A DNA stretch of 64,000 nucleotides from an uncultured Verrucomicrobiae bacterium. GTDB taxonomy: Bacteria; Verrucomicrobiota; Verrucomicrobiia; Chthoniobacterales; UBA10450. Under the pieces are notes generated by a model, which worked only from the letters and a program-made list of their open reading frames with translations, had not been told where the DNA came from and made no database searches. The position numbers and the translations under genes are program-made. The stretch spans positions 96,001 through 160,000 of the forward strand of contig CAVWPA010000001.1 in assembly GCA_963756875.1 (NCBI GenBank). The letters run 5' to 3'. Positions 3,022-62,695 of this stretch are shown here, one piece after another (position 1 is the stretch's first letter; every line of letters begins with the position of its first letter).

Positions 3022-3089
3022 AGGCGCTCATTATGTGCGGCGCGGTTTGACAGGCGGGCTTTCGATCTTGTATCTTTGGTAACTCAACC

Positions 3090-3602: not shown

Positions 3603-3617
3603 ACTGGCCGATTCATC

Positions 3618-5054
3618 ATGTGGCCTATCGTTCTCTCCGGGCTGCTTGTGGCGTCTCTCGCGGGCTGGATTTATACGGCCTACTGCATGGCTCGCCGCGT
3701 TCGCGCCATCGAACGTTCGAAGGAGGAAATCCAGGTCGAGGAAACGCTCGTTTTCGATTTTTTGCACGGACTGGGCGAAGCGTTCACCGAAACGATTCGG
3801 CCTAACGAGTTACACCGGCTCATCGTCGAGGGGGCGGCGCGTATTCTCGACGCGCATGGCGGCGCGCTTTATCTGGCCGATCGCACCGGCGCGAATCTCG
3901 TGCCGGCCTATCTTTCCAAGAGCTGTCCGCCGCTGGTCGATGTTCCGTTGCACATTTTGCAGCAGGCCGCTTCCACTCCGGTCGCGCTCGAAAGCTATCT
4001 TCACCTGCACAACGTCGTCGCAGGTGAGGGGGCCCTCGGCCGGGTCTGGCAAAACGGTCAGCCGCTTTGTTTGACTGACCTTTCGGAAGCGCCCGAGCTG
4101 GCGAAACTGCGCGATACCGCGCATCGTACCGTTTCGGCCATGATCTCCCAGTTGCTGTACGGAAAACAAAACATGGGCGTCCTCGCGGTCGTTAACGGCG
4201 CCACTGGCACCGCATTCTCCCAGGGCGATTTTGTGGTCTTCAAATCGATCGCCGAGCAATCGGCCTTCGCTCTTTACAACGCCATCATTTATTCCGAGGC
4301 CAACGAGAAAAAACGGCTCGATCACGATCTGGAAATCGCGCGCGATATTCAGCGCGTTCTGCTTCCCGCCGAGGCCCCCAGCGTGAATGGTTTTGAAATC
4401 AGCGGAATTAATTTGTCCGCGCGCCAGGTGGGCGGCGATTATTTCGATTACATCAAAGTGGACGACGAGCGGCTGGGCGTGGCCATCGCCGATGTTTCTG
4501 GCAAAGGCGTGCCGGCCTCGCTGGTGATGGCGATTTGTCGCAGCGTCCTGCGCGCAGAGGCCGCGCACAATCCTTCGCCCGCGAATGTTCTGCAGAAGGT
4601 CAATCGCCAGCTTTATCCCGATATCAAGGAAGACATGTTTATCAGCATGGCTTATCTCGTTCTCGACCACGCCCACGGCGGGGTCACTCTCGCCCGCGCC
4701 GGTCATGACGCGCCGTTTCTTTATAAACACTCGACGCAAACCGTCACGCCGCTCAAACCGCCCGGCATGGTCGTGGGCATTGACAGTGGCAGCGTCTTCG
4801 ACAGGTTAACTGTGGATTTCGCCGTTCCTCTCGAGCGCGACGATTGTCTCCTTCTTTACACCGATGGGATAACCGAAGCACTCAACAGTAATGGCGACGA
4901 ATTTGGCGTTGAGCGGACAACGCAGGCAATTCGCGCCAGCGCGATGAACGGGGCCCAGGCCGTGGTCAAGCGCTTGATTGACGATTTGCGCAACTTCGTC
5001 GGTTCGCATCCGCAAAATGACGACATCACCCTGATCGCCATTCGCAAGACATGA
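3618..5054 (+). CDS. GAF + SpoIIE/PP2C serine phosphatase (RsbU-like) with N-terminal TM helix
   Basis: IARDIQRVLLP, VGGDYFD, IADVSGKG, AGH, YTDGITE and DDITL motifs. Confidence 0.92.
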   Translation: MWPIVLSGLLVASLAGWIYTAYCMARRVRAIERSKEEIQVEETLVFDFLHGLGEAFTETIRPNELHRLIVEGAARILDAHGGALYLADRTGANLVPAYLSKSCPPLVDVPLHILQQAASTPVALESYLHLHNVVAGEGALGRVWQNGQPLCLTDLSEAPELAKLRDTAHRTVSAMISQLLYGKQNMGVLAVVNGATGTAFSQGDFVVFKSIAEQSAFALYNAIIYSEANEKKRLDHDLEIARDIQRVLLPAEAPSVNGFEISGINLSARQVGGDYFDYIKVDDERLGVAIADVSGKGVPASLVMAICRSVLRAEAAHNPSPANVLQKVNRQLYPDIKEDMFISMAYLVLDHAHGGVTLARAGHDAPFLYKHSTQTVTPLKPPGMVVGIDSGSVFDRLTVDFAVPLERDDCLLLYTDGITEALNSNGDEFGVERTTQAIRASAMNGAQAVVKRLIDDLRNFVGSHPQNDDITLIAIRKT

Positions 5055-5647
5055 AGAAAATTCCAATCAGAGAATCCGAAGAGACAAACGAGTCTGACGA
5101 CGCGAACAAAAAACCGACTCCGGCGTCCGCCGCAGACGGGAGGGCGTCGGACCCTTCGCAAGTGGTTCGCGGCGATGGCGACGGCGACGATCCAATGGCG
5201 GGAGTGCAGGCCGACCTCGATCGCTTTCGCGATCTGGCCATGCGCACCCAGGCCGACTTTCAGAATTACAAGAAACGCTGCGCGCGCGAAAAGGAGGAAG
5301 CGATCAAGTACGCCAACACTTCCCTGCTCGAACGGCTCGTCGCGATTGTCGATAATTTCGAGCTCGGCCTGGAGGCCGCCCGAAGCGAAGGCGAGAAGTC
5401 GCCCATCTTTTCCGGAATGAGCCTGGTGTTCAAACAACTCCAGGACTTTCTGGCCGATAACGGGTTGCAGCCGATCGAGGCGGTCGGCCAAAAATTCGAC
5501 CCGAATCTGCACGAAGCCATCGGCCACGAACCAAGCGACCAGGTTCGGGAGGGAAGCGTGATCCGCCAGAACCGCCGTGGCTATCGTCTCAAAGACCGCT
5601 TGTTGCGGGCGGCAAGCGTCGTGGTTTCATCCGGCCCGGCTAAATAG
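5051..5647 (+). CDS. grpE: Nucleotide exchange factor GrpE
   Basis: ADFQNYKKR, FDPNLHEAI and GYRLKDRLLRAASVVV; ATGA overlap with the upstream gene. Confidence 0.96.
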   Translation: MKKIPIRESEETNESDDANKKPTPASAADGRASDPSQVVRGDGDGDDPMAGVQADLDRFRDLAMRTQADFQNYKKRCAREKEEAIKYANTSLLERLVAIVDNFELGLEAARSEGEKSPIFSGMSLVFKQLQDFLADNGLQPIEAVGQKFDPNLHEAIGHEPSDQVREGSVIRQNRRGYRLKDRLLRAASVVVSSGPAK

Positions 5648-14483: not shown

Positions 14484-15877
14484 TCACAGCTCGATGGCGT
14501 AACGCTTCATTTTGTTATAAAGCGTCGGCCGCCCAATTCCGAGAAGCCGTGCCGCCTTCTTCTTGTTGCCGTGGCATCGCGCGAGCGCTTGCAAAATGGT
14601 CGCGCGCTCAACGTCATCGAGACTTAGCGCTCCATGCCACGGCTCAGTGCCACGCTCACTTTGTTGCAGCACCATTGGCAATTGCACTTCGGCCGGAAGT
14701 TCCTTTACGCCGATGAGATCTTGACGCGCCAACACGACTGCGTATTCCATCGCGTTTTGCAGCTCACGCACGTTGCCGGGCCACGTGTAGTCGAGCAGCT
14801 TTTCGAAAGCATCGGGCGCAATCGCCGGCTCCCGCTTTCCTAGTTGCTGCGCGAATTGTTTTACGAAAGAGGCGATGAGCGGCGGAATATCCTGCTTCCT
14901 ATCACGAAGCGGCGGTACTTCGATCTGAAATGTGTTCAGCCGGTAATACAAATCCGGACGCAAGCGCTTTTCGGCTAACGCTTGAGCAATCGGTCGATTC
15001 GTCGCTGCGATCACGCGGAAATCAACTTTCAGCGTTTCTGTGCTTCCAAGTGGTCGGTATTCACGTTCCTGCAGCACACGGAGAAAACGTGTCTGCAGTT
15101 CGATCGGCATATCAGAGATTTCGTCCAGAAACAGGGTGCTCCCTCCTGCCTCACCAATCATTCCGGTGAAATCGTTGGTCGCGCCGGTGAAAGCACCTTT
15201 TACGTACCGAAAAGCTCTCCTTCGATCATGGCTTGCGGAAACGCCGCGCAATTGAGTTTTACCATCGGCTTGGCCGCGCGGCGGCTGCGATGGTGAATCA
15301 TATTGGCAATCACTTCTTTGCCCACACCACTCTCGCCTGTGATGAGCACATTCGCTTCGGAAGGTGCCATGGCGTTGATTAACTCTTCGATTTCCTGCAT
15401 CGGCTTGCTTTTGAAGACTGGAGTAAGCCGCGTCTCGGCAATCTCGAGACGCTTCTCCAACTGCGCCGTCTTTTCTCGAAGTTCCGCCGTCTCGCGAAGC
15501 AATGTCTGTTTTTCCAACGCTTTCTCGACCAGACTGAGCAATTCCTCCGGAGCGTATGGTTTGCTGATGAAATGATAAGCACCGCGCTTGATCGATTCGA
15601 TCGCGTTGCTCAAAGAATCGTGCGCCGTCAGAATGATGACCGGCGTTTCTGGATGCTCGCTTTTGATTTGGTCGAGCATTTGGAATCCTTCTGCGTCAGG
15701 TAGTTGCAAATCGAGTAACACCAAGTCGGGCGATTTATTCTTCAATGCGCGCAAGCCTGTGGTCGCAGTTGCGGCCGTCTCCGTTTGATAACCGTGTCTG
15801 CCCAGAAGCGCCTCGAGTGTGAGAAGGATCGATCGCTGGTCGTCAACAATCAGGATTCGACGATTCTCCGTCATCAT
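14484..15877 (-). pseudogene. Sigma54-dependent response regulator (NtrC/AtoC family), frameshifted near 15205
   Basis: REC + GESGVGKE + NCAA...ELFG in one frame; YVKGAFTGA, FLDEI, DLYYRLN, WPGNVREL and HTH in another; one base missing in GGT-TAC. Confidence 0.85.
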
Positions 15878-26397: not shown

Positions 26398-27036
26398 ATG
26401 CCGAACCTGGTCACATGGCTGCGCGAGAAGGACGTGAAATGGTTTCAACCGTTTTTCGCAAAGCACCCCGGCCTTCGCATTTGCAACGTCCGGGAAAATA
26501 CCGTGGTCCTGGAAGAAATGGAGGGCTTGCTTTTGACCGGAGGCTCCGATATCGCTCCGGAATTTCTTCGGCAGGAGGTTGTTGATCCCGGCGTGCTTGA
26601 GAAAGATGTCGACCCGGAACGGGACCGCTGGGAATTCGAAGCCCTCGAGCTGGCGATCGCGCAGGGGATCCCGATCCTGGCTATTTGCAAAGGCCTGCAG
26701 GTTCTTAATGTAGCGCTCGGCGGCACGCTCAAACTCGACATTCAAGGCCACAACCTGCCGGAACAAAAAGAGCGCGACATCCAGCCGCTGCGGCACGATG
26801 TCCGGGCGCAGCATCGGTTTGAGAAAGTGAACAGCCTGCATCATCAGGCGATTGACCGGTTGGGCAACGAGCTGGAGATCGAAGCCTGGTGCGCCGCCGA
26901 CGATATCATCGAACAGGTCCGGCTGCGCGATCATCCGTTTGCCGTGGGAGTGCAATATCATCCGGAACGCGGAAAGATTTACGACGGACTATTCGAGGAT
27001 TTCTTTTCGCATGTAAGAAATCTGTTGAATCGTTAG
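26398..27036 (+). CDS. Peptidase C26 / gamma-glutamyl-gamma-aminobutyrate hydrolase family
   Basis: GLLLTGGSD, LAICKGLQ, VNSLHHQAI and VQYHPE (Cys-His-Glu triad). Confidence 0.9.
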   Translation: MPNLVTWLREKDVKWFQPFFAKHPGLRICNVRENTVVLEEMEGLLLTGGSDIAPEFLRQEVVDPGVLEKDVDPERDRWEFEALELAIAQGIPILAICKGLQVLNVALGGTLKLDIQGHNLPEQKERDIQPLRHDVRAQHRFEKVNSLHHQAIDRLGNELEIEAWCAADDIIEQVRLRDHPFAVGVQYHPERGKIYDGLFEDFFSHVRNLLNR

Positions 27037-48302: not shown

Positions 48303-49319
48303 CTACGACTCCAGCTTTTCTTCAATGGCTTTGACCCGGGCGAACAGCTTTCCGAGCCGATGAATCCAGGCAATCTGCCGTTTTGCGTTGGCAAAGGGTA
48401 CGGCTGGAGAACCGAACCAGACGCCTCCACGGGTGTCCTTCGTGATTCCGCTTTGCGCTGCGATCATGGTCCCGTCACCGATCTCAATGTGACCTATGAC
48501 GCCCACCTGGCCGGCCATCATGACGCGCTCGCCGAGGCGGGTACTGCCTGATACTCCCGCTTGCGCCGCGATCACGGAATGTTTGCCGATCACAACGTTG
48601 TGCGCCACCTGCACCAGATTATCGATCTTCACCCCCTCCTGTATCCAGGTGCGGCCAAAGCGGGCGCGATCGACGGTCGTGTTGGCCCCGATTTCCACGT
48701 CGTTATCGATCTGCACGATTCCGACCTGTTGAATTTTCCGCTGGCGGCCATCGACGAATTCGAAGCCAAAACCATCCGCCCCGATCACCGCGCCGCTATG
48801 AATAATGACGCGGGCGCCGATACGTGTCCGTTCGCGAATCGCGACATGGGGATAGATGGTACATTCCGGGCCGATTACGGTTTCATGGCCCACATAGGTT
48901 TGCGCTCCAATCACCGTGTCATCCCCGATGCTCGCCCCGGCCTCGATTACCGCGTACGGTTGCACCGAGACGCGCGCGCCCAGTTTTGCGCTCGGATCCA
49001 CGATCGCACTCGGGTGAACTCCTGGCGGAAACACCACAGGTTTCGGGGCCAGTCGCAGAACGATTTGTTCGAATGCCTTGGATGGATTTGAAACGTGAAT
49101 TTGTGCGGCTGGGATCGTTTCGGAGAAATCAACCGGCACGAAAACCGCGGAAGCGCGGGTCTTTTGCACCAGGGAAGCGTATCTGGGATCGGCAAAAAAC
49201 GTGATTTCACCCGGTTCGGCTTCCGCGAGCGACGCCGCCCCGGTTATTTTCCCGGCGGGATCACCGTGCAACTCGCCACCGGTGATCTTCGCGATTTCCT
49301 GGAGAGTAAAAGTCATCAA
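48303..49319 (-). CDS. lpxD: UDP-3-O-(3-hydroxyacyl)glucosamine N-acyltransferase
   Basis: Hexapeptide repeats; IGADGFGF, VEIGANTTVDRA and KIDNLVQVAHNV motifs. Confidence 0.96.
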   Translation of the reverse strand: MMTFTLQEIAKITGGELHGDPAGKITGAASLAEAEPGEITFFADPRYASLVQKTRASAVFVPVDFSETIPAAQIHVSNPSKAFEQIVLRLAPKPVVFPPGVHPSAIVDPSAKLGARVSVQPYAVIEAGASIGDDTVIGAQTYVGHETVIGPECTIYPHVAIRERTRIGARVIIHSGAVIGADGFGFEFVDGRQRKIQQVGIVQIDNDVEIGANTTVDRARFGRTWIQEGVKIDNLVQVAHNVVIGKHSVIAAQAGVSGSTRLGERVMMAGQVGVIGHIEIGDGTMIAAQSGITKDTRGGVWFGSPAVPFANAKRQIAWIHRLGKLFARVKAIEEKLES

Positions 49320-49459: not shown

Positions 49460-51463
49460 CTACCGTTGCTCGGTCCCTGGCAGCAGCACACTGACCGACG
49501 TGCCTTGAGGGCCCGAATCGATGTCCACCCTCCCGTTGTGATCGAAGATCGTGCGCTTCACAATCGGCAATCCTAATCCCATCCCGCGCGGCTTGGTGGT
49601 GCAAAAAGGAGAAAATATTTTCTCCTTCAACTCCGGCGCGATTCCTTTGCCGTTGTCCCGCACAGTAATCACAACTCCGCCGGGCCCGTCGTTTTCACGG
49701 AGTGGTTTTACCGAAAGCGCGATGCGGCGTTTCTTTTGATGGGAAAGAGCCTCGGCCGCGTTGGCCACCAGGTGAGCAAACGCTTCGGCAAGGGCTTCTT
49801 CATCGCCAAGCACGTGTGGCAGGTTGCCAGGCAGCGACGTTTCCACTTCAATCCCGCCATTTACCCCGAAGCGCGACCGGGCGATTTCGAGGCCTTTCTT
49901 TACCGGTGCGCGCACGTCGATGGACTTCAGAACAATTTCGGGCGGATGCGCGAAGCTATTGATCTGGGTAATGATCCTGTCCAGGCGATCGACCTCTTTA
50001 ACTACGATTTTGTTGAATTCCTTGCGGAAGTCGGCGTCCTCGAAGCGTTCGGGAAGAAGTTGGGCAAAAGTTTTTATGGCAACCAGCGGGTTGCGGATCT
50101 CGTGCGACATGCTGGCAGCGAGATCGGTCCAGAAGGCGGCTCGATCGAGCAGCGCCTGTTTTTCGCGCGTCGTTACTTCGGTGGTCAGATCGTGCAGAAC
50201 AGCCACGGCCCCAAGGGGCGTGCGCTGGTCTGCCAGGCGGCGCACCTCAACCGACAGCGGGCGACGCGTGTTATTGTCGGTCCACTGCCGCGCCGGCAGA
50301 TTCGCTTTCGAATCGAGGGCGTCGCGCAGGAACGAGGCCAGACGGGTTCCCAGTGCTTCCACAGGTTTGTTCACGGCATTTGAGCTCGACACTCCGAGAA
50401 GTTGCTCAGCCGTCGGGTTAAACCAACGCACGACTCCATCCTCATCGGTGGCTACGATGCCTGACGGAATCGATTTGAGAAGAGTTTCAGCCAGCGTTTT
50501 TTGCAGCGTTACTTCCTCGTAAAGCAGGGAGTTCTCCAGCACGGTTGAGACCTGTTCAGCCAGCAGCATCAGGGCTTCAAGATCGCGGTAATCGAACGGC
50601 TGGCCGGCGATCCGATGTCCGAAAAATAACCAGCCGATGATACGACCGCGTGCGTAAAGGGGCACAATGACTTCCGCGCCAAAAGCGTCCAGGGCGCGCC
50701 GCATCACCTGACGCGTTCTCTGATCCGCGGCTTGCGCAAGATTTGCGCGTGCGATCAGGGAGGCGTTCGATTCGAACCAGCGGACCAGCGCATCGCGCTC
50801 GCCAAATTCCATTTCGTGCGTTTCGGGCAGGCAGCGCAACCCCGCCCGTAGCCGGTAATCTTCGCCCTGGCGCCCGCGTGAAAAAATACCCACTCGCGCT
50901 ACACCGGCCGCGTCCGCCACGCCTTCCACAATGCTCCCGAGCAAAGCGTCGATATTTTCAAACCGGCGAAAAACCCGGGGAAAACGCATCATCACCGCAG
51001 ACGACGCGCCATAACGCTCCGCAGCAACCTCCGGTCGATGCAGTGGCTGGGCCACAGGGACCATGGCGGATGTTTCCCGCAAGTCCCGATTTTCCTGCAA
51101 AGCTTTGAGATAATCGAAAGCCCGGCCGGCCAAAGCCTGGAACCGGCGGCGATCCAACTCGAGATCTTCCGCTGCGTAAATTCCAAATTGTTCCGCTTCA
51201 CGCAGCGGTTCCGAGCGCATGACGCCGAGCGCTATGATCAGTACGTCCTGCCATTCCTGTTGAACTTGTTCGATGAGATCGCGGCATTCTTTGGCGCGGA
51301 GATCTGCAATCAGCAGGCAGGCGCCGACTTGCTGAAGAACCGCGTCCAGACGATCCGGCTCGCTGACGTGCCGTACTTGTGCGGCCATACGCAGGTACGC
51401 CCTGACCCGCCGGCTCAGATCGGAATCCTGCGTATATAAGATGCAGACCGGCGGGGGAATCAT
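49460..51463 (-). CDS. Cytoplasmic histidine kinase: degenerate receiver, GAF, PAS, HisKA, HATPase
   Basis: MSHEIRNPL, NAAEA, DNGKGI, FSPFCTTK and GMGLGL motifs. The ORF-track extension to 51625 is repeat-derived. Confidence 0.92.
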   Translation of the reverse strand: MIPPPVCILYTQDSDLSRRVRAYLRMAAQVRHVSEPDRLDAVLQQVGACLLIADLRAKECRDLIEQVQQEWQDVLIIALGVMRSEPLREAEQFGIYAAEDLELDRRRFQALAGRAFDYLKALQENRDLRETSAMVPVAQPLHRPEVAAERYGASSAVMMRFPRVFRRFENIDALLGSIVEGVADAAGVARVGIFSRGRQGEDYRLRAGLRCLPETHEMEFGERDALVRWFESNASLIARANLAQAADQRTRQVMRRALDAFGAEVIVPLYARGRIIGWLFFGHRIAGQPFDYRDLEALMLLAEQVSTVLENSLLYEEVTLQKTLAETLLKSIPSGIVATDEDGVVRWFNPTAEQLLGVSSSNAVNKPVEALGTRLASFLRDALDSKANLPARQWTDNNTRRPLSVEVRRLADQRTPLGAVAVLHDLTTEVTTREKQALLDRAAFWTDLAASMSHEIRNPLVAIKTFAQLLPERFEDADFRKEFNKIVVKEVDRLDRIITQINSFAHPPEIVLKSIDVRAPVKKGLEIARSRFGVNGGIEVETSLPGNLPHVLGDEEALAEAFAHLVANAAEALSHQKKRRIALSVKPLRENDGPGGVVITVRDNGKGIAPELKEKIFSPFCTTKPRGMGLGLPIVKRTIFDHNGRVDIDSGPQGTSVSVLLPGTEQR

Positions 51464-51554
51464 GCCGCCGTCGCTCCTGGAATACTCCGGTTCGGAGACT
51501 TTTTGGTGCCTGGTGTCGGGAAAGTGGAATTTCCCATTAGATCGCGACGGAAGG

Positions 51555-51762
51555 ACCAAATCCCAAGCACCAAATCCCAAAGAAACTTCAAGCTCCAATC
51601 TCCAAAGGGCGGTCTCGCGCAGCAATCTAACCTACGGGTCTCACCAATGATTGGCCAAACACCCGCTAAAGACATCGCGCTGTTACCGGACGCGATACGC
51701 GATATTTGAGTATTGGTATTTGGAGATTCCCTGGAGCTTGGGCTTTGGGATTTGAGGCTTCC
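51555..51762. repeat. Inverted heptamer array between the two kinase genes
   Basis: caaatcccaagcaccaaatcccaaagaaacttcaagctccaa ... ttggagattccctggagcttgggctttgggatttgaggctt. Confidence 0.75.
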
Positions 51763-51773
51763 GGTCATCGGTT

Positions 51774-54305
51774 TCATGCCGCCGCCACCTCGCTGCCAAA
51801 TCTAACGAGGGGAAGCAGAATGTGAAAAGCTGTTCCTTTTTTAAGTTCGCTCTCGACCTCGATCTGTCCCTCGTGCTCCTGAATGATTCCATGCACTACC
51901 GACAGGCCCAGTCCGGTCCCGTAATCCTTTGTCGTGAAGAAAGGATCAAAGACATGCGGGATATCCTGCTTGCGAATTCCATCGCCCGTATCGCGGATCG
52001 TGATTCGCAAAACCTCTATTTCCGCCGCACCGCCGTTGCCTTGGGCCATTGAAGAGGCCCATCTCTTTTGCGTTTGAATCTGGGTATTAACGACCAGTTC
52101 GCCGCCGTTTTTCATCGCGTCCATGGCATTCAGAAAGAAATTGAGAAAGACTTGCTCGAGCTGGTCGGCATCGCCGCGGATTGTATCAACATTTGCCTCC
52201 CAAGAGCGAGTTAATTTGATTTCTTTTTGATATAACCGGTGGCCGACCAGCATGAGCGATTTTTCCAGCGCTTCATGTGCGTGCATCTTCTTAAGATGCG
52301 GTTTGGCCGGGCGAGCAAAGCGAAGCAGCTGGTTAACCAGCGAATCGATCCGGTCGATCTCGTGTCCGATCAGGTTCGAGAAAGTCTCACGGAAATCGGA
52401 ATCCTGATAACGCTCCGGTAACAACTGCGCGAATGTTTTGATCGAAACCAGCGGATTCTTGATTTCGTGGGCCATGCCGGCCGAGAGCGTGCCGAGGCTG
52501 GCCAGCCGATCGCTGCGGCGAATTTGCGATTCGAGTCGCTTGAGCGCCGTGATATCGGTCAGCACCATCAGCGCACCGAGCATCTCTCCATTTTGATCGT
52601 GAAAGATGGACGTGCTTGTGCGCGCGACCCTCGCCTCGTCCCCAGACTGCAGGGCCAGCTCGTTGTTCTCCCGGCCCTGCCCGGTGTTCAAAGTTTCGCG
52701 CAACGTATCGCGCAACGGGCCGGGGAGCGCTCCAAGGGAAATGCCGGGAATTTCGTCGGCCTTGAGTCCCGTGATTCGTCCGGCTTCGTTGTTGAATACG
52801 GTAATAAGCTCGTCGGCGCCCGTGGCGATGACGCCAGTGGTCAGATTTTCCAGCAAAGTCTCGTTGTAAATCTTTGCGTTCTGCACCTCGGTAAAGAGCT
52901 CGGCATTTTCAATTGCCACCGCGAGCTGGCCGCATAAAACCTGCAAGGCGCTTTGCTCGACGCTTCCGTAAATGCGTCCCGATTTCCGTGCGCCGAGCAG
53001 CATCACGCCGGCCAGATGATCGCGAGCGAAGATTCCCATGGCCACCGCGACCTGGAGCGAGTTCAACTGTCTCATTACACTCTGGAGTTGCTCGGTGGGC
53101 CGCACGCGGCGCAGCTCGTCCATGACGACCGGCTCGTGCTCGGATTCAAGTTGCACGATCGTTGCCTGGTCGCGTGTCAATTCCAGCCGTTGGCGGGAAC
53201 CGGGCTCGACCATCGGATATTGCTGCGAAAATCCCTGTCTGTCCGGCAAAAGGATGAAGATCCGCTCGGTGCCGACGGCTCCGGCTACCGTATTGGCGAA
53301 TTTGTCCAACAGGTCTCTCAGAGTTGTAACGGAACTTAATATTTTGGCGGCCTTGCTTACGGTCGCGCGAAAATCGAGCTGATGGGAACCGATGAAAAGC
53401 CGTTCTGCAAATCGTTGCGAAACACCGCGTGCCGGCGCCATTGCAAACGCGATAACGATGGCCGCTACGACGTGCGCAATGGCGTGGGAATTCCCCGCCG
53501 AAGAATGCAATGCGGTCGCAACGAGCCACCAGACCAGCGCATAAAGGCTGAGCAGGTAAACCGTGAGTAAGCTATAAGAGATAACGCGACGAAGAAGGAC
53601 GCCGACGTCCATGATTTTTCGGGTCGCGATGCCGTAAGCGACTACCAGACTAAACAAAACGATTCGAAACGGGCCTAGCCAAGTCAACCTCGACGTATCT
53701 ACGAAGAGGCTTAAAAGAAGGTACAAAGGAATGGAAAGCAGAAGGGCTACAACAGCACCCATGATAACGAGTGCCATTTCTGATTTCTCAGGGCCCGAAA
53801 CTCGACGTAGGTCGAGTGACAAGAGGATGATTAAAGCGACGATCGCGCCCGCGAAGCACATCGCGAACAAATGAAAGCCCGGCCCATAAGAAGGGACGGG
53901 GAAAGATGAGGCATGCCCGGCCTCGTGACTTAGATGAACCCCTTTTAGAAAAAACTTAGTCTGACAAAGGATCGCGATGGCGATGCTACCTAAGAACCAT
54001 GGAAGCGCTCGCCGCAGGAGGGCGCGCCACCTTTCTTTTCCCCTGCGAATGGAGAGACGAAGAAGATTAACAGTCGCCAGAATGAACGCGCCCACGGCGG
54101 AGGCCTGTCGAATGCAAAACTCGGCGACCCCTAGGTTGTTCGTCAGTAGCCCGTAATAAAGGTTTGCCAGCCATCCGGTAATGGCGAGCGAAAGAAATAA
54201 GAAACACTGGTTGGATTTTCGCTTCGGGTTGGCTTGGAAGACGACCAGTCCTAAGCCCACCTGGATGAGAATCGCTGCAAGGGCTGGTAAGCCAGCGCTA
54301 GTCAT
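51774..54305 (-). CDS. Membrane sensor histidine kinase: multi-TM (HisKA_7TM-like), GAF, PAS, HisKA, HATPase
   Basis: About 9 hydrophobic helices starting ...NPKRKSNQCF; QLAVAIENAELF; MAHEIKNPL; FDPFFTTK; GTGLGL. Confidence 0.93.
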   Translation of the reverse strand: MTSAGLPALAAILIQVGLGLVVFQANPKRKSNQCFLFLSLAITGWLANLYYGLLTNNLGVAEFCIRQASAVGAFILATVNLLRLSIRRGKERWRALLRRALPWFLGSIAIAILCQTKFFLKGVHLSHEAGHASSFPVPSYGPGFHLFAMCFAGAIVALIILLSLDLRRVSGPEKSEMALVIMGAVVALLLSIPLYLLLSLFVDTSRLTWLGPFRIVLFSLVVAYGIATRKIMDVGVLLRRVISYSLLTVYLLSLYALVWWLVATALHSSAGNSHAIAHVVAAIVIAFAMAPARGVSQRFAERLFIGSHQLDFRATVSKAAKILSSVTTLRDLLDKFANTVAGAVGTERIFILLPDRQGFSQQYPMVEPGSRQRLELTRDQATIVQLESEHEPVVMDELRRVRPTEQLQSVMRQLNSLQVAVAMGIFARDHLAGVMLLGARKSGRIYGSVEQSALQVLCGQLAVAIENAELFTEVQNAKIYNETLLENLTTGVIATGADELITVFNNEAGRITGLKADEIPGISLGALPGPLRDTLRETLNTGQGRENNELALQSGDEARVARTSTSIFHDQNGEMLGALMVLTDITALKRLESQIRRSDRLASLGTLSAGMAHEIKNPLVSIKTFAQLLPERYQDSDFRETFSNLIGHEIDRIDSLVNQLLRFARPAKPHLKKMHAHEALEKSLMLVGHRLYQKEIKLTRSWEANVDTIRGDADQLEQVFLNFFLNAMDAMKNGGELVVNTQIQTQKRWASSMAQGNGGAAEIEVLRITIRDTGDGIRKQDIPHVFDPFFTTKDYGTGLGLSVVHGIIQEHEGQIEVESELKKGTAFHILLPLVRFGSEVAAA

Positions 54306-55545
54306 CGCCTGAAATACGGTTCGCAATCATCGTGCACGCACTGCCTCCGAGGCCTCTGACATTGATAAGGGTGCAGCCTACCTTCGTTTTGCGAGGGCGG
54401 GACGGAACGAAATCGAGGTCGCAATCGGCATCCCCGGTTTCGAAGTTTGCCGTTGGCGCGATGATCTGATCGCGAATGCTAAGGGCACACGTGGCCAGTT
54501 GCAATGGGCCTCCGGCAGCCAACGGGTTTCCAGTGACGCCTTTAATGGAGTTGACTGGAATTTCGTAGGCTCGCTCGCGAAAAACCTCCTTTATAAACCG
54601 CACTTCCGCCGCGTCCAAAGTTCGATCGCTTGGACCGTACGCAGAGATGTAGTCAACGTCTTCGGTGGAACGCACCGCGTTCGCCAGTGCAAGCCTCATT
54701 GAGTCGACCAAACCGGAACCGGGTCTCTCGGGATCGAGATCGCGCCGCTTCGCATAACCGCATATTTCGAGATAAGCGCGCGCTCCCCGAGCTTCTGCGT
54801 GCTCCAGATTTTCAAGGATGAAAATACATGCGCCCTCCGCGAGAACACCACATTGTCTCTCGGAATCAAAAGGTCGGCTGGCTTTCTCAGGTTCCCCATT
54901 CGTGGTCGAACAAAGTCCGCTTCCTATGAAACTCGCCATCGTTAACGGTGTTATAGGAGCGTCTGCCCCGCCGGCGACGGCAATCTCTGCTTCTCCCATG
55001 CGGATCATGGCAGCCGCGTCAGCCACCGCATCGAGACCGGATGGGCAAGCCGAAGAAACCGTCACCGCGTTGGCGCACGCGCCCAGTCGATCAGCGATAA
55101 GGTTTGCCGGCGCTTGAGGAATTGAAGCGGCCGATGCGCTCGCGGGCGCGCGGTTCGGCCCGCGGTCCCGCAGGGCGAAATAAACACTTTCGATCACATC
55201 TATCGCGCTGGTGCTTATTCCGATCACCACCGGAGTCGGGCTGGGTAATTCGAGATTGTCGGGATCCAGTCCCGCGTCTCGTAGCGCCATCATTGTTGCC
55301 GCGTAGGCAAACTGCGTGTGCCGCGCCATCCGCTTGGGTTTCAACTCCGGCTCAATGTAATCCAGCGGATCGAAGTTCTTTACCTCACCGGCAATGCGAC
55401 TCTTGAAACCAGTCGCATCGAACAACGTGATCGGCCCAATCCCGCTGCGACTGGCGAGGAGCGACTCCCAAAATGGCTCAATGCCAATCCCGTTCGGGGC
55501 TAGAATTCCCATGCCAGTGATAACAACGCGATTTCTCCTGGTCAT
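54298..55545 (-). CDS. FabF-like beta-ketoacyl synthase with a non-canonical active site
   Basis: RVVITGMG, SSACPSG, SRPFD and EGA motifs; YISAYG and KGVTGN replace the canonical YINAHG and KSMTGH. Confidence 0.9.
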   Translation of the reverse strand: MTRRNRVVITGMGILAPNGIGIEPFWESLLASRSGIGPITLFDATGFKSRIAGEVKNFDPLDYIEPELKPKRMARHTQFAYAATMMALRDAGLDPDNLELPSPTPVVIGISTSAIDVIESVYFALRDRGPNRAPASASAASIPQAPANLIADRLGACANAVTVSSACPSGLDAVADAAAMIRMGEAEIAVAGGADAPITPLTMASFIGSGLCSTTNGEPEKASRPFDSERQCGVLAEGACIFILENLEHAEARGARAYLEICGYAKRRDLDPERPGSGLVDSMRLALANAVRSTEDVDYISAYGPSDRTLDAAEVRFIKEVFRERAYEIPVNSIKGVTGNPLAAGGPLQLATCALSIRDQIIAPTANFETGDADCDLDFVPSRPRKTKVGCTLINVRGLGGSACTMIANRISGDD

Positions 55546-55760
55546 ATTATTCTATTCCATTTCGAGAAATGGTGGTTCATAGTGCCGACAATGCGGGTGA
55601 CTCGATCTCTGCGGCAGAGAAATTTCGCTGCGGTGGTTATAAACCCAAAGTAATGGCCGGTCACACTGGACACGAGCGGATCACGACCGATTCTAAACGC
55701 TACATTAAATCCAGTCATTATATTTTTCTGCCACTTTCAGCCCGACTTATTCACCAAATT

Positions 55761-55782
55761 TGCAACTTATCCACAAGTTGCA
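55761..55782. promoter_or_regulatory. Inverted repeat, candidate activator site, overlapping a TTATCCACA DnaA-box consensus
   Basis: tgcaactt-atccac-aagttgca in an AT-rich divergent intergenic region. Confidence 0.45.
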
Positions 55783-55868
55783 TCTTGCGCGCCAACTGTT
55801 TTCATTTCAGCTTCTTTACTCCGTTTTCTATGCTTCCGCGGCCTTTTTTTTCATCTCGTCACCCTCCT

Positions 55869-55884
55869 CGGCACGCGCCTAGCT
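55869..55884 (+). promoter_or_regulatory. Putative sigma54 (-24/-12) promoter
   Basis: CGGCACGCGCCTAGCT versus consensus TGGCACG-N4-TTGCW; 20 nt upstream of the ATG at 55905. Confidence 0.55.
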
Positions 55885-55904
55885 GTTAACCCGCTCGGTC
55901 ATAC

Positions 55905-57059
55905 ATGACTGCCTCAACCGAATTGCCTCAAATTCTCGTTATTGACGATGAAATGGGACCGCGGGAAAGCCTGCGCATGCTGCTAAAACCGAACTACCAG
56001 GTTCACACGGCCGATTGCGTCGAGGCGGGTCTCAAACTGCTCAAGGAAAAATCTCCCGACACGATCGTCATGGATATCCGCATGCCTGGTATGACCGGAA
56101 TCGATGGCTTGCGAAAGATCCGCGAGATCGATCCGCATCTTTCCGTCATTATGCTCACCGGTTTTGGAGCGCTTGATACGGCAAAAGAGGCCCTGCGCCT
56201 GGGCGCCAACGATTATATCAGCAAACCGTTTGATGCGCGCGAAATGCAGGAAGTAATCGGCCGTAACGTGGAACGCACCCGCGTTCAACGAACCGCGGAT
56301 CATGCCGCTGAAGAAATCAAGGAGCTAAACAACCGCCTGCTCAAAGAACTGGCTCAAAAGGAAAGACTGGCGTCCCTCGGTCAAGCCTCGGCCGAATTCG
56401 TGCATGATCTCGGTAACCCGCTGACCATTGTCTGGGGTTATGTGCAGCTGCTGGCCAAGCGGCTGGAAAAATCCGAAAACAGCGATACTGCTACCCAAAA
56501 TGCGACCTCGGTTAAAGAGCTCAATATTATCGAACAGAACGTCCGTCTGTGCCGTGAGCTTCTTACAATGTGGCAAAGTTACGGCAGCGTCGAAGCGTCT
56601 CCGCCCAAGCCCCTCTCCGTGTCGGAAATCCTCCGGGAAATCATCAAAGGCATCAGCGCGGTGGCAACTCAGAGCGGCGTGGAACTAAATGCCACCATCT
56701 GCGAAGACCCGTGCATTCTGCTCGGCGACGCCGTGCAAGTGAGACGCGCGATTCAAAACGTGGTGATTAACGCGGTGCAAGCTTCCGCGGAGAAAAAAGG
56801 GTCGGTCAAAGTCACCTGCACAAAAAAAGATTTCTACGTCGATCTTCTCATCGAAGACAACGGACCCGGAATTGCTCCCGCGGAACTGAACAGAATTTTC
56901 GACCCTTATTTCACGACCAAGCAGGCGAAGAGCGGCACCGGTCTTGGACTGTATATCACGAAAAAAGTCGTCCAGGATCACAATGGTTCGATCAAGGTGG
57001 ACACCACGCCCGGTGTCGGCAGTATTTTCACAATCCGTTTGCCGCTCTCGAATAAGTAG
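55905..57059 (+). CDS. Hybrid response regulator / histidine kinase (REC, HisKA, HATPase)
   Basis: VIDDE, MDIRMP, YISKPF, FVHDLGNPL, DNGPGI and GTGLGL motifs. Confidence 0.93.
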   Translation: MTASTELPQILVIDDEMGPRESLRMLLKPNYQVHTADCVEAGLKLLKEKSPDTIVMDIRMPGMTGIDGLRKIREIDPHLSVIMLTGFGALDTAKEALRLGANDYISKPFDAREMQEVIGRNVERTRVQRTADHAAEEIKELNNRLLKELAQKERLASLGQASAEFVHDLGNPLTIVWGYVQLLAKRLEKSENSDTATQNATSVKELNIIEQNVRLCRELLTMWQSYGSVEASPPKPLSVSEILREIIKGISAVATQSGVELNATICEDPCILLGDAVQVRRAIQNVVINAVQASAEKKGSVKVTCTKKDFYVDLLIEDNGPGIAPAELNRIFDPYFTTKQAKSGTGLGLYITKKVVQDHNGSIKVDTTPGVGSIFTIRLPLSNK

Positions 57060-57217: not shown

Positions 57218-59545
57218 GTGCGCTCTTCTCCAGATTTAAGAATTGCTACTGCGCGGGCGTTTCGTTTTCCTGAACGCGTGCCATCTGCTTATCAAGTCGC
57301 ACCGATTTTTTTGATCCGGATGGCGGGAGTTCCTTTCGAGCGAATTGAACACCTTGCCACTCGGGAGACGGCCGCGACCGCTCGCGAACTGGTCTCGAAG
57401 GTGAATAAATTGAACTCTGAAGACGAAGCACGCCTGCTTACAGCGCTTCAAATCGAACTGGAGAGATCGAGGAAATCGCTTTTTGAGGCCGCGCGCACGG
57501 TCCTTCCGCATTATTTGGTTTTTGCAGGCGAAGGCATGCAGGAGAGAGCAGCCTCTTTGATTGAAGGGCTAGTCACCCAGGACAATACGTTGCCCGCGCG
57601 CAACAGTCGCAATCGGGATCGTGAGCGCCACTTGGTTCTTTATCTTCAACGAATCGCAGCCAAGAACGACACTTTTGGTGAGTTCGGTCCCTCAGGCTGG
57701 GGCAGGATTGACGGCAATCGTACCGGCGTAAAGATCGACGTCGTACCTGGCGTTGCAGCGCGGGAGGTATTTCTCGAACGCTGGACCGCGCACGCGATCG
57801 CCGGCGTTATCAACGCCGATCCTGACATTCAGCCCGAACTTTGTCCGCGGCTGAATCCAAACGGCCGGATTGAAGGGCTAGCTTTCGTTTTTGCCGATTC
57901 CGGCGAAAAAGTGGTGCTGGATCAGGCCACGCTCGATCTCGTCAAACGATGCGATGGGCGAACGCCGGTTCATTCGTTAGGCGTACCGGTCGAGAACATT
58001 TACGCCCTTGTGGAAAAGAAATTCCTGCGCTGCGCGATGGAAGTTCCCGCTCTTGATCCACATGCGTTCGCGATCCTGTGTGATGATGTCAGGAAATGGC
58101 GTGCTGGGCCGGTGCGCGACAAGTGGTTGTCGATATTGCAGCCAATTTCGGAGCTACCGCAGGCGTTTGTCACCGCATCTAAAACGAAAGATCGACATGC
58201 AATTATCGATGAAGCGCGGGCCCGTCTTCTCTCGGCGGGGGCTGTCCACAAGCCGGGCGACCGGTTCTTGTACTCGGCAAGCAACCCGATCGGCGAGGAA
58301 TGTTTTCGTGAATGCGGTATCTCGATCGACGCAGCCTTGATCAATGAGGTCGCGACGGAGGCCGAACCCTGGATCGATTTCTGGCGCGATTCCTACGCCT
58401 TTGTCGCGTCGCGCGTCGCGGGCGGTTTGCGACAGATAATGGAAAAGGCCGGCGCCCAAAATGGACCGATTCCGTTGCCTGCATTTCTCAGTGCCTGCGA
58501 AGCGGCGAAACTCTCGCTTAGCGGTCCGGGACTTGTCGCCTTCGCGGTCATGGCCTTTCAAGAAGTAAAAGCCGCTTTCCGGCAGCGCCTGAAACCACAT
58601 GTCGATTGCGCCGAGTACGAGCTCACGGTCGAAGACTGCCATGTCGTGCGCAATAACTTCCAGTACCCGCTCTTCGACGAATACACATATCCGTCGGCCG
58701 ATCTGCAAATTGCAGCAAAATCTGCTGACGCGATTGCGCGCGGCGATTATCAATGGATTTTGGCCGAATTGCATCCGCCGGCGGCATTGCTGCATCATTG
58801 CATGTATTGGAGTTGTCCGGACAAACCGGCCCTCAACAGGGCGATGGCCAGCGTCGTATTTGGTCGCCCCAATTTTCACTTCGGGTTTTTTGCCGCCGAT
58901 TTTACTTCGCATACGGCAGTACGCTTGTTCGACGCGCTTCCCGAATTTTCCAACTTTGTCGCGCCGCAACGGGGAAATCCAAACTGGCGCACCGTTCCGC
59001 CATCTCAGGCCGAAGTTTATGTCGATCCCGAGAGCGGAGATGTTTGTCTGCGCAAGATCGACAATCAGGAATACCTCGGCTCATTTGCACGGGCCTGGAT
59101 CATTCCGCTCGGTTTCCACCCGTTCCAATTTGGAGTGGCTCCGCAGACGCCGCGGTTGCGGTGCGGTAAAGTGATCGTCCAACGGCGCGCCTGGGTAGTG
59201 ACCGTCGCTGAAATCCCGCCTGGAAATTATACCGGCGTATCGCGCAACCTTGTCCTGGCGATCGAGCGGTTGCGCGCGAAAAGAGATTTGCCGCGCTATA
59301 TTTACATTCGCCCGACCGAACAGGCGCTTCGCCGCAGCGGCGCGGAAGGTCGCGATAAAGACACCAAACCGGTGTTTATCGATCTGGAGAGCTATCTTTT
59401 TCTCGAAATCTTCTATCGCTGGCTTACGAAAGCCGGCGAGTTGGAGGTGACCGAAATGCTCCCGGACCCGGAGCATTTGCCATGGAAAGAGCCGGATGGC
59501 CGGCACACGTTTGAGCTGCGCACGCTCATCGTTCCGCGCGCATGA
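57218..59545 (+). CDS. LanB glutamylation-domain-only protein (PEARL, peptide aminoacyl-tRNA ligase-like)
   Basis: YLQRIAAKNDTFGEFGP, SADLQIAA, LAELHP, PRLRCGKVIVQRRAW, LPRYIYIR, KPVFID and EMLP...GRHTFELR end; no elimination domain. Confidence 0.85.
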   Translation: MRSSPDLRIATARAFRFPERVPSAYQVAPIFLIRMAGVPFERIEHLATRETAATARELVSKVNKLNSEDEARLLTALQIELERSRKSLFEAARTVLPHYLVFAGEGMQERAASLIEGLVTQDNTLPARNSRNRDRERHLVLYLQRIAAKNDTFGEFGPSGWGRIDGNRTGVKIDVVPGVAAREVFLERWTAHAIAGVINADPDIQPELCPRLNPNGRIEGLAFVFADSGEKVVLDQATLDLVKRCDGRTPVHSLGVPVENIYALVEKKFLRCAMEVPALDPHAFAILCDDVRKWRAGPVRDKWLSILQPISELPQAFVTASKTKDRHAIIDEARARLLSAGAVHKPGDRFLYSASNPIGEECFRECGISIDAALINEVATEAEPWIDFWRDSYAFVASRVAGGLRQIMEKAGAQNGPIPLPAFLSACEAAKLSLSGPGLVAFAVMAFQEVKAAFRQRLKPHVDCAEYELTVEDCHVVRNNFQYPLFDEYTYPSADLQIAAKSADAIARGDYQWILAELHPPAALLHHCMYWSCPDKPALNRAMASVVFGRPNFHFGFFAADFTSHTAVRLFDALPEFSNFVAPQRGNPNWRTVPPSQAEVYVDPESGDVCLRKIDNQEYLGSFARAWIIPLGFHPFQFGVAPQTPRLRCGKVIVQRRAWVVTVAEIPPGNYTGVSRNLVLAIERLRAKRDLPRYIYIRPTEQALRRSGAEGRDKDTKPVFIDLESYLFLEIFYRWLTKAGELEVTEMLPDPEHLPWKEPDGRHTFELRTLIVPRA

Positions 59546-59722
59546 AAATTGTCGCCATCGCAAATTCCGGGGAGCGCACGCGCCGCCGCGTGCTGGCGAT
59601 GGCGCCACCGCCATCGCGAACTTTTTCTTCTGAAGGATTTTCTCTTGATCGAACTGGGGATCGATGTCCCTCGGATGTATTCGTGGGCGTCACGACCAAA
59701 TGAAAATTGTCGCCATCGCAAA
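59542..59722 (+). repeat. 23-bp direct repeat of the parA start flanking a palindromic element
   Basis: atgaaaattgtcgccatcgcaaa at 59542-59564 and 59700-59722. Confidence 0.9.
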
Positions 59723-60482
59723 CCAGAAAGGGGGCGTGGGCAAGACCACCACGGCCGTGAACCTGAGTGTAGCACTCGCTGAAAAACGGTTGCGGATTCT
59801 GCTTGTTGACCTCGATCCTCAGGCGAACGCAACCAGTTCGCTCGGGATGCAGGAAAGCGAGGGCGAAAGCATTTACGCTTCGCTGCTGGGCGAAAATTCG
59901 ATTGCTGAAAAAGTGTTGCCCACGCGCATCGATCGCTTGTTTCTTGTGCCTGCCGATCTCGATCTGGCCGGCGCTGAAATCGAGATTGCGCGGATGAGCG
60001 ATCATCTCACGCGGTTGGCTGGGGCTTTATCGATCTTTCGTTCGGACGAAACCTTCGACTTCATCCTGATTGATTGTCCTCCTTCGCTGGGCATTTTGAT
60101 GACGAACGCTCTTGCCGCCGCGGATGAGATCCTGACACCAATCCAGTGCGAATATTTTGCACTGGAAGGTCTGGTAAAAATCGTGCGCGTGGTCGAGCAG
60201 GTGCGCGACTCCGGCGCGAACGATCACGTCGAGATCGGCGGCATCGTGATGACCATGTTCGATAGCCGGACAAATTTGAGCGCGCAGGTCGTCACGGAAG
60301 TTCGCCAGCATTTCGGTCAACGCGTTTATCAAACGGTTATTCCGCGCACGGTTCGCCTCAGCGAAGCGCCCAGCTTTGGCAAATCGATTCTCGAACATGA
60401 CCCGAGTGGGACCGGCGCCAACGCTTACCGCGCTCTGGCGCGCGAATTTATCAAGCGTCACGGCTTGTCAGCCAGCCGGTAG
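59700..60482 (+). CDS. parA: ParA/Soj family ATPase
   Basis: IANQKGGVGKTTT, DLDPQANAT, IDCPPSLG, PIQCEY and EAPSFG motifs. Confidence 0.95.
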   Translation: MKIVAIANQKGGVGKTTTAVNLSVALAEKRLRILLVDLDPQANATSSLGMQESEGESIYASLLGENSIAEKVLPTRIDRLFLVPADLDLAGAEIEIARMSDHLTRLAGALSIFRSDETFDFILIDCPPSLGILMTNALAAADEILTPIQCEYFALEGLVKIVRVVEQVRDSGANDHVEIGGIVMTMFDSRTNLSAQVVTEVRQHFGQRVYQTVIPRTVRLSEAPSFGKSILEHDPSGTGANAYRALAREFIKRHGLSASR

Positions 60483-60587: not shown

Positions 60588-60710
60588 ATGCAAACAGACA
60601 TCAAGGAATACGCGCGACCGGCCACGCCGCCCGACACGTCAAGTCTGGCGACGGTACGTGAGGCCGCATGCGCGTGCGAGGCTTGCCTAAACGATAGCGA
60701 CTCGATCTAA
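60588..60710 (+). pseudogene. N-terminal remnant of a family-4 uracil-DNA glycosylase (UdgX-like)
   Basis: MQTDIKEYARPATPPDTSSLATVREAACACEACL then a stop; SL..VREAA..C.AC matches the first Fe-S ligand pair. Confidence 0.5.
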
Positions 60711-61954: not shown

Positions 61955-62200
61955 TCAAAGATGCTTCTTTATGAAGACCCGTCCCGAGGACGACTTCAGA
62001 TAAGCTTCCAAACGCTTTGCGCGGTCCACATTAGAGAATGCAATGTACGTTTTGATCTTCCACGGTTTCCACTTTGATGTGTGGCGGATTTCTCCACTGT
62101 TATGGCGAGCAAATCGTTTACGGAGATTACCTGTGCAGCCCGTATAAAATCGCGCGGGATCGATTTCGCTCTGCAAAATGTACGCGTATGTGAACTTCAT
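61955..62200 (-). CDS. Small GIY-YIG nuclease family protein
   Basis: YAYILQS...FYTGCTGNLRKRFARHNSG...TSKWKPW...LEAYLKS motifs. Confidence 0.9.
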   Translation of the reverse strand: MKFTYAYILQSEIDPARFYTGCTGNLRKRFARHNSGEIRHTSKWKPWKIKTYIAFSNVDRAKRLEAYLKSSSGRVFIKKHL

Positions 62201-62319
62201 ACTGGCTGGCATGCCGAGTCGAAGCTCGCCGCGTTCGTTTGGCAAGGTGAAAGACGTCCGCCTTCGCTATGGCTTCGGCGCGACAGTCTACGCTCTCCGC
62301 CACCGCTGCGAGCGTAGAC

Positions 62320-62392
62320 TGGAGGTAAGGGGATTCGAACCCCTGGCCTTCTCATTGCGAACGAGACGCTCTACCAGCTGAGCTATACCCCC
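62320..62392 (-). tRNA. tRNA-Ala(CGC)
   Basis: gggggta/tacctcc acceptor with G3:U70, tagctcagctggtagagc, anticodon loop ttCGCaa and ggttcgaatcc. Confidence 0.95.
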
Positions 62393-62695
62393 GAAATCTT
62401 TCAACTGCCGAGACTTAACGCGTGAAATCAGCTTGGTCAAAAACCTGCCACCCCACCCGTTTTGCCCCCCCCGATGATTTTCCGTCAGTCCACTCCTGTC
62501 CAGAAAGTCAGGGTCGAACATTGTGAGAATCGGTTCATACTTCATCTCAAAACGCTCAACTGCGAGGGAAAAGTATCAAGGTGGAGCGGGATTTTACAAG
62601 TGAGAAGGGTCGGGTAGAGCATTTTCGTATTGCGATCTTGCTTTACGGTCATGAAAATTATCGCGATGCGCGCATTTGGAGCAATGAGCAAACGC

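Follow-up and report, generated by a model that had tools for sequence, protein, structure and literature searches.

The closest described relatives of the protein considered here are the PEARLs (TglB, BhaB1/5/7, AmmB2/3 and TmoB, together with SnaE and SinB1/2), for which the literature surveyed describes only roles in natural-product formation, on carrier peptides or small molecules. The window analysed here, a stretch of 64,000 nucleotides from contig CAVWPA010000001.1 of an uncultured Verrucomicrobiae bacterium (order Chthoniobacterales), encodes a protein, P0001, that like the PEARLs consists of a LanB glutamylation domain only (LanB_N; about 750–900 aa in this group), with no elimination domain and with an insert resembling the recognition elements (RREs) of peptides that are made on the ribosome and modified after translation (RiPPs), and that has their motifs K-N-[DE]-T, S-x-D, E-x-H and C-terminal E-[IL]-R. 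Unlike the PEARLs, P0001 lies outside a biosynthetic cluster, with neither a scaffold peptide nor a tailoring enzyme, protease or exporter adjoining it, and is fixed in a three-kinase signalling module as a vertically inherited, near-core gene. The split and full-length LanBs (TbtB and GodF; NisB, MibB and MadB) share with it the site for the aminoacyl-tRNA 3' end (an Arg/Lys motif after YxxR, K717 and E766), but they require an elimination domain or partner, have Tyr and Leu at the positions of D495 and R768, and use no ATP. The gene and its key residues are as follows.

57218–59545, plus strand: PEARL-like protein of LanB_N only, 775 aa (P0001), from Pfam, AlphaFold2 with Foldseek, and residue conservation
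Within P0001: R34; Y142, R145, K149 and T152 (tRNA site); D495, E517, H519, K717, E766 and R768 (ATP and acyl-phosphate site)

The open reading frame (ORF) begins with GTG, and all of the motifs that an initial annotation of this stretch had quoted for the 775-aa product are present in the translation: KNDTFGEFGP (residues 149–158), PSADLQ (492–497), ELHP (517–520), PRLRCGKVIVQRRAW (645–659), KPVFID (717–722), EMLP (746–749) and FELRT (765–769). Its description as a glutamylation domain only is likewise borne out, with Lant_dehydr_N as the sole Pfam family (57.6 bits against a cut-off of 28, E 9.2e-16) and no Pfam match to the elimination domain, Lant_dehydr_C. No NCBIfam family model matches P0001, and a search of the ESM Atlas gave nothing beyond generic Lant_dehydr_N clusters. 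The public gene call, P0002, is 741 aa long and starts at M36 of P0001; we prefer the 775-aa reading because conservation among relatives begins at about residue 9 and R34 is near-invariant. The AlphaFold2 model, for which 47 homologues were used, has a mean pLDDT of 92.8 and a pTM of 0.92. When it is compared with the PDB by Foldseek, each of the ten top matches is a LanB glutamylation domain, from TbtB, MibB, NisB, GodF or MadB (E 8e-24 to 5e-19, TM 0.56–0.67), with TbtB the closest (E 8e-24, TM 0.67). There are further weak local matches to RREs and to ATP-grasp ligases, and the RRE-like insert is a winged helix at about residues 204–275.

Residue conservation provides further insight into which kind of LanB_N protein this is. 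In an alignment of 47 diverse homologues, down to 21% identity, R145, K149, G157, P158, D495, E517, R646, R656, P692, K717, D722, E746, E766 and R768 are invariant, and R34, Y142, Q144, T152 and H519 are conserved in at least 90%; the tRNA- and ATP-site residues, which the initial annotation had considered might prove absent on alignment, are thus conserved. The P0001 profile aligns to TbtB across the residues that bind the tRNA 3' end and phosphate (the regions of Y142, R145, K149, T152 and E766). According to PMC11117183, Arg743, Phe783 and Glu851 of TbtB are common to all enzymes of the LanB/PEARL group, whereas an Asp (542 in TglB, 558 in BhaB7) and an Arg (803 in TglB, 815 in BhaB7) are phosphorylation residues of PEARLs only, with Tyr and Leu at these positions in split LanBs. 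Figure S12 in the supplement of PMC11212132 has S-P-D and C-terminal E-[IL]-R in six PEARLs, E-F-L in TbtB and D-V-V in NisB at the position of the C-terminal motif, and K-N-[DE]-T in both PEARL rows displayed (TglB and BhaB7). The counterparts in P0001 are K-N-D-T, S-A-D (in P-S-A-D-L-Q-I-A) and E-L-R (in F-E-L-R-T), and the PEARL-only Asp and Arg are its D495 and R768, both of them among the residues invariant in 47/47. Moreover, the ATP site of BhaB7 as listed in PMC12945691 and PMC11962472 (R34, D558, E575, H577, K763, E813 and R815) matches R34, D495, E517, H519, K717, E766 and R768 of P0001 in the same order and at nearly the same spacing.

These features support the assignment of P0001 as a PEARL-like, elimination-domain-less LanB_N protein, and it is very probably a catalytically competent PEARL-type ligase acting within the kinase module described below. 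The fold and the tRNA-site residues are common to LanB glutamylation domains, and the closest solved structure is that of a glutamylase, TbtB, as would also suit a protein that is not a C-terminal ligase, being instead a Glu-tRNA-dependent Ser/Thr glutamylase without elimination, which would leave a stable glutamyl ester as a mark on one of the module's proteins, or a catalytically silent tRNA-binding or scaffold subunit of the kinase complex. We regard this as very improbable: the Asp and Arg peculiar to PEARLs are invariant here, as against Tyr and Leu in split LanBs, and the strong conservation of the entire ATP-site set speaks against a silent scaffold.

The initial annotation had also allowed for a split LanB whose elimination partner is encoded elsewhere. 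A profile search for PF14028 gave no match in the genome that contains the window (G000; 2.69 Mb in three contigs, 87.6% complete) and none in any of four module-bearing relatives (97–100% complete), and the positive control, G304, was matched by the same search in two full-length LanBs (236 bits). Because this search is negative in G000 and the four relatives with the control positive, and because the two diagnostic positions hold Asp and Arg, not Tyr and Leu, we reject the split-LanB reading. The two genes in G304, itself a module-bearing relative, are open frames of 1114 and 1126 aa for class I LanBs (C3:89444–90751 and C2:86376–87197); they lie elsewhere in that genome and are unrelated to the module.

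The genomic setting of P0001 is conserved, and it is here that our view departs from the initial annotation, whose assignment of the protein to a PEARL-like class stands on the residues and the missing elimination domain, but whose description of it as stand-alone in a housekeeping-like context does not. P0001 closes a rigid module of five co-inherited genes, namely a ketosynthase-like gene, two GAF-PAS kinases (one 7TM, one soluble), a REC-kinase hybrid and the PEARL-like gene itself. It thus has three sensor kinases and an atypical ketosynthase as partners, and only parA and lpxD are housekeeping neighbours.

55905–57059, plus strand: REC-HisKA-HATPase hybrid kinase, with which the PEARL operon begins (Pfam, synteny)
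54298–55545, minus strand: FabF-fold ketosynthase-like protein, its gene overlapping the 7TM kinase gene by 29 nt (Pfam, NCBIfam, alignment)
51774–54326, minus strand: HisKA_7TM-GAF-PAS-HisKA-HATPase sensor kinase, 850 aa (Pfam)
49460–51463, minus strand: soluble GAF-PAS-HisKA-HATPase kinase (Pfam, synteny)
59664–60482, plus strand: ParA/Soj-type ATPase, a housekeeping neighbour (Pfam, synteny)
48303–49319, minus strand: LpxD, the neighbour on the other flank (Pfam; adjoins the module in relatives with long enough contigs)

In 15 of 15 relatives, compared over 20-kb loci, lpxD, the soluble kinase, the 7TM kinase and the ketosynthase-like gene follow one another on one strand, and the hybrid kinase, the LanB_N gene and parA lead away from them on the other; the hybrid kinase is 73–83% identical in all of these. 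The identical order recurs in further loci, on genome contigs (80) and metagenome contigs (78/80), wherever the contig is long enough. Five genomes without the PEARL-like gene, two of genus g113 in the same family and three of other families, were used to ask whether the module is absent with it: orthologues of the hybrid kinase, the 7TM kinase and the ketosynthase-like protein are missing from all five, which hold only paralogues of these at 26–40% identity, the soluble kinase not being among the proteins searched there. Because the gene order is fixed and the searched members share the presence and absence of the PEARL-like gene, we take the five genes as one module.

As the initial annotation had it, P0001 sits between the hybrid kinase and parA, both confirmed by Pfam, and parA abuts or overlaps the stop codon of the PEARL-like gene in many relatives. 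We nevertheless reject parA as a module member. It encodes the sole Soj-type ATPase of the genome (parB is on another contig), it is present at 57–76% identity in all five genomes that lack the module, and it is displaced by 1.3–2.6 kb in three loci (L107, L115 and L117) and not found within 2.9 kb in a fourth (L105). Both parA and lpxD are thus housekeeping flanks that lie outside the module, and the remaining genes of the window are housekeeping as well (cmk, dnaJ/grpE, ftsK, miaB, dap genes, glmS, glgC and secretion ATPases). At L084:5505–10036, and also at L144, about 4.5 kb is inserted between the hybrid kinase and the PEARL-like gene; the ORFs of the L084 insertion, of 595 and 265 aa, match no Pfam family.

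The PEARL-like gene occurs in 2 of 201 genomes in a sample of the phylum and in 20 of 201 in a sample of the order, where it is confined to the window's own Chthoniobacterales family, f1 (19 of 21 genomes, G000 excluded and the unpublished genome G368 included), and absent from the 15 other families (0 of 179). Both f1 genomes without it belong to the one genus, g113. The gene is vertically inherited and near-core in one widespread family of soil Verrucomicrobia. The protein family as such is large: a word-based search gave 1054 matches among 8000 scored candidates, of which the best 120 are 58–100% identical, the named ones being metagenome-assembled genomes (MAGs) of Verrucomicrobiota/Chthoniobacterales, and among representatives of 50%-identity clusters there are 1931 matches at E <= 1e-3 and 145 at E <= 1e-30. 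Homologues outside the Verrucomicrobia, one from a named Anaeromyxobacter MAG, are 36–46% identical. All 80 loci scanned on genome contigs are of the Chthoniobacterales type, as are 78 of 80 on metagenome contigs, the exceptions, L135 and L161, both being short contigs. The first, with 78% G+C, has tandem PEARL-like paralogues (650–3160 and 3175–5574) that both carry the C-terminal FELRT motif, the first of them missed by Pfam at E <= 0.001. The second has a PEARL-like gene at 19–2439, 46% identical to P0001, whose end is overlapped by the gene of an AMP-binding (adenylate-forming) enzyme at 2403–3611, a cluster-like context. Fused forms are limited to four distant NRPS-LanB_N proteins at 23–35% identity. 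The contexts of this wider family fit an origin among natural-product PEARLs followed by recruitment into the signalling module.

Pearlin clusters place a scaffold peptide, tailoring enzymes and a releasing protease next to the PEARL, and this layout is not found at P0001. Among 56 ORFs of the window scanned with Pfam there is no LanC, YcaO or transporter-type RiPP partner, in agreement with the initial annotation, and the only peptidase-family match of the window is Peptidase_C26 at 26398–27036, some 30 kb from the PEARL-like gene. Nor is any small ORF conserved as protein within about 10 kb on either side of the gene in the 15 loci, so that the annotation's failure to find a precursor-type ORF nearby also holds. 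Three candidates in the window were considered and rejected. The 106-aa ORF at 55569–55889 is conserved DNA and not a peptide, because its frame shifts between relatives, in some of which it contains stops. The 40-aa ORF at 60588–60710 (plus strand), downstream of parA, corresponds to the N-terminus of a family-4 uracil-DNA glycosylase and is a remnant: the gene is intact in relatives downstream of parA (about 213–260 aa) and appears truncated or lost here. The conserved apparent ORFs at 62178–62545, on both strands, are shadows of a tRNA-Ala(CGC) gene at 62320–62392 on the minus strand.

These negatives bear on the possibility that P0001 acts on a small pearlin-type scaffold peptide encoded elsewhere, the kinases only regulating this activity or sensing its product. 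The characterised peptide-acting PEARLs all use carrier peptides of about 40–80 residues, most members of the family here have kept the RRE-like insert, and the distant relatives in cluster-like settings (the tandem paralogues of L135 and the AMP-binding enzyme of L161) would suit such a role. However, no conserved small ORF accompanies the gene, no pearlin-type protease, transporter or tailoring gene adjoins it, its vertical inheritance and near-universality in one family are unlike those of a secondary-metabolite cluster, and the RRE-like insert is dispensable in some lineages. On balance we think a distant scaffold peptide unlikely.

A different kind of substrate is suggested by the C-terminus of the 7TM kinase, which in the window ends in VRFGSEVAAA (codons at 51777–51806). 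The tail that follows the last strand of the final domain has 10 residues in 79 of the 80 loci that have the anchor, with the consensus VRFxxEVAAA, and there are only three distinct final tripeptides (AAA in 50, VAA in 26 and AVA in 4). The ketosynthase-like protein, the soluble and hybrid kinases, ParA and P0001 itself end in variable tails, with 33–79 distinct final tripeptides. The 7TM kinase is also the only ORF of at least 200 aa in the genome that ends in E[VIL][AV][AV]A. Codon usage within the tail points to selection at the protein level: each of the four Ala codons, or Val codons, occurs at positions -2 and -3, and there is synonymous variation at R(-9) and F(-8) too. Of 168 loci, 7 have lost the RRE-like insert; where data exist for these (4 loci), the tail is present in 4 of 4, which fits recognition of a tail rather than of a leader.

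A protein tail is a plausible PEARL substrate in the light of work on BhaB7, for which, according to PMC11962472, a C-terminal 12-mer suffices as substrate, a 14-mer tag enables labelling of GFP, lysozyme and MBP, and the RRE is dispensable for substrate engagement. The known PEARL scaffolds end in ...PLALA, ...VFA or ...RVA, and these ends are small and hydrophobic (...LALA in the first case), like the ...EVAAA of the 7TM kinase. The initial annotation had suggested C-terminal aminoacylation of a full-size protein among other possibilities, and this suggestion gains in the kinase tail a candidate substrate. We name the tail, on grounds of its conservation, as the leading candidate substrate of P0001, and do so tentatively.

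We therefore propose the following explanation, to which we give a probability of roughly 0.35. A PEARL-type enzyme would have been recruited from natural-product clusters into a vertically inherited signalling module in one family of Chthoniobacterales, where its substrate would be the free C-terminal tail, of invariant length, of the module's 7TM sensor kinase (...LLPLVRFxxEVAAA-COOH). It would phosphorylate the terminal carboxylate and then condense the acyl-phosphate with the amine of an aminoacyl-tRNA, so that one amino acid is added, and the added residue could alter the stability of the kinase or its binding of partners. This explanation starts from the fold, the catalytic residues, the absence of an elimination partner, the co-inheritance of the module and the conservation of the tail as observed, and would assign from them an activity, a substrate and a consequence. 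In E. coli, non-polar, Ala-rich C-termini such as the ssrA ...LAA and the WVAAA tail act as signals for degradation, and the resemblance of the kinase tail to these degrons suggests how a single added residue could matter. That P0001 indeed extends the C-terminus of a full-size sensor kinase in a tRNA-dependent, ribosome-independent manner, thereby masking or creating a degron or docking site, is doubtful at present; such an extension could couple the supply of aminoacyl-tRNA and ATP to signalling.

Several points weigh against this proposal. The PEARLs described so far work on small scaffold peptides or small molecules; the literature surveyed reports none with a full-size protein as its natural substrate, and the candidate here is an 850-aa membrane kinase. 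Part of the tail conservation has an explanation at the nucleotide level: in 61 of 61 loci the last tail codon, GCA (53) or GCG (7), forms together with TGA the ATGA or GTGA start of the next kinase gene, and GAG at codon -5, present in 46 of 61, provides a Shine-Dalgarno-like GAGG that lies 10 nt upstream of the start of that gene. The tail may also serve as a degron or docking site unrelated to the ligase. The small-ORF comparison covered loci of about 20 kb, so that the gene of a scaffold peptide could lie elsewhere, and the correspondence between the residues of P0001 and those of PEARLs was read by eye from motifs and spacing in printed alignments and legends. A complex prediction for P0001 with the last 150 residues of the 7TM kinase (paired alignments of 35 rows, run without controls) scored 0.00 with no verdict and speaks neither for the proposal nor against it. 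Finally, a model based on the kinase tail leaves the role of the ketosynthase-like protein unexplained.

This last protein aligns over its full length to Bacillus subtilis FabF (E 9e-79), as a thiolase-fold match to FabF/KAS II in which Cys167 and Lys335 are kept but both catalytic His are replaced, by Tyr303 and Asn340, in 101 of 101 orthologues, giving a Cys-Tyr-Asn triad in place of Cys-His-His. Its score against the NCBIfam fabF model TIGR03150 is 340.2 bits, below the cut-off of 493.75, and the genome encodes a separate housekeeping FabF with 36% identity to it. With this triad and score we do not assign it as a FabF (beta-ketoacyl-ACP synthase II), and from the loss of both His a decarboxylative condensation by this protein is unlikely. 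Joint work of P0001 with the ketosynthase-like protein, which the initial annotation had put forward, is possible. The two would then act on a small-molecule or lipid carboxylate to make an N-acyl-amino-acid-like signal or an envelope lipid that the 7TM kinase senses. The precedents are SnaE, which acts on the product of a nonribosomal peptide synthetase (NRPS)-polyketide synthase system (PMC11212132), and SinB1 and SinB2, which act on nucleosides (preprint 10.64898/2026.05.21.726688), to which can be added the four distant NRPS-LanB_N fusions, the constant presence of the ketosynthase-like protein in the module with Cys167 and Lys335 intact, and the frequent adjacency of lpxD. Against this, the module contains no acyl carrier protein, acyl-CoA ligase, thioesterase or exporter, a Cys-bound thioester differs from the free carboxylate that PEARL chemistry requires, and without both His there is no obvious product, which together make a small-molecule substrate seem quite unlikely to us.

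Under the proposal that the kinase tail is the substrate, P0001 can be compared with enzymes outside the LanB group. The N-degron aminoacyl-tRNA protein transferases Aat, Bpt and ATE1 likewise add one residue in a tRNA-dependent and ribosome-independent way, with a regulatory or degradative outcome, but on N-terminal targets, with a GNAT-like fold and with no need of ATP. The ATP-grasp C-terminal protein ligases, RimK acting on ribosomal protein S6 and tubulin tyrosine ligase, activate a carboxylate with ATP and add amino acids; they use free amino acids instead of aminoacyl-tRNA and lack the LanB_N fold. The logic of the hypothesis would be shared with these ligases. PEARLs have been proposed as descendants of ATP-grasp enzymes, as stated in PMC11117183.

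Among the module kinases, a simple hydropathy scan predicts transmembrane segments in the 7TM kinase only. The conserved start of the soluble kinase is M55 of the longest ORF (MIPPPVCILYT, at 51463), and in relatives that codon shares bases with the stop codon of the 7TM kinase gene (ATGA or GTGA). Its N-terminal region of about 170 aa is conserved with no Pfam match (pattern CILYTQD...LLIADLR) and looks like a degenerate receiver domain. In the window an insertion separates the two kinase genes; within it a dispersed, REP/MITE-like repeat of about 60 nt occurs twice, a repeat with dozens of copies on all three contigs.

51464–51773, no strand: genome-specific insertion of about 310 nt that separates the two kinase genes (comparison with relatives)
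55546–55904, no strand: divergent intergenic region with conserved DNA boxes (comparison with relatives)

The divergent intergenic region between the ketosynthase-like and hybrid kinase genes contains a conserved box at 55690–55727 with the pattern ATTCTAA-N-C-N-CTACATTAAATCCAGTCATTATATTTTT. To the right of it there is a direct repeat, CTTATTCAC/CTTATCCAC, at 55746 and 55766, which overlaps a palindrome at 55760–55782 (TTGCAACTT-N5-AAGTTGCA). Rfam has no match for these boxes. The strongly conserved noncoding boxes at 55690–55782 are probably binding sites of a regulator. Upstream of 55905, at 55870–55884, lies a sigma-54-type -24/-12 element, GGCACGCGCCTAGCT, that is conserved in relatives; the pattern GGCACG-N4-T[TA]GC[AT] has its single match in the 64 kb at 55870, where about 0.1 would be expected by chance (our own arithmetic). 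The genome encodes rpoN and several enhancer-binding proteins, and the module is probably read from this predicted sigma-54-type promoter. The enhancer-binding protein nearest to the element at 55870 is an NtrC-type response regulator (REC, sigma-54 activator, HTH_8) at 14484–15877 on the minus strand, which is split into overlapping ORFs at 14484–15251 and 15200–15877, with a stop inside the Sigma54_activat match, and is either a frameshifted pseudogene or an assembly error.

The kind of enzyme described here is known; what is new is that it is constantly associated with three kinases and with a ketosynthase fold of Cys-Tyr-Asn type, together with its near-core status and the candidate protein substrate. 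In a literature search no paper links lantibiotic dehydratases or PEARLs to Chthoniobacter, Verrucomicrobia or histidine kinases, except for one general review in which the terms for PEARL and histidine kinase both occur. A near-core PEARL-type gene tied to three kinases and to a remade ketosynthase fold suggests that tRNA-dependent ligation has a physiological or regulatory use in this family, and even if the kinase tail is not the substrate, the module would still mark an unknown signal or lipid pathway. Should the tail prove to be the substrate, this would be a new class of bacterial post-translational modification and a natural protein-tagging pair, with the first natural protein substrate and the first regulatory, non-biosynthetic role of a PEARL, and P0001 would be a C-terminal counterpart of the Aat and ATE1 transferases.

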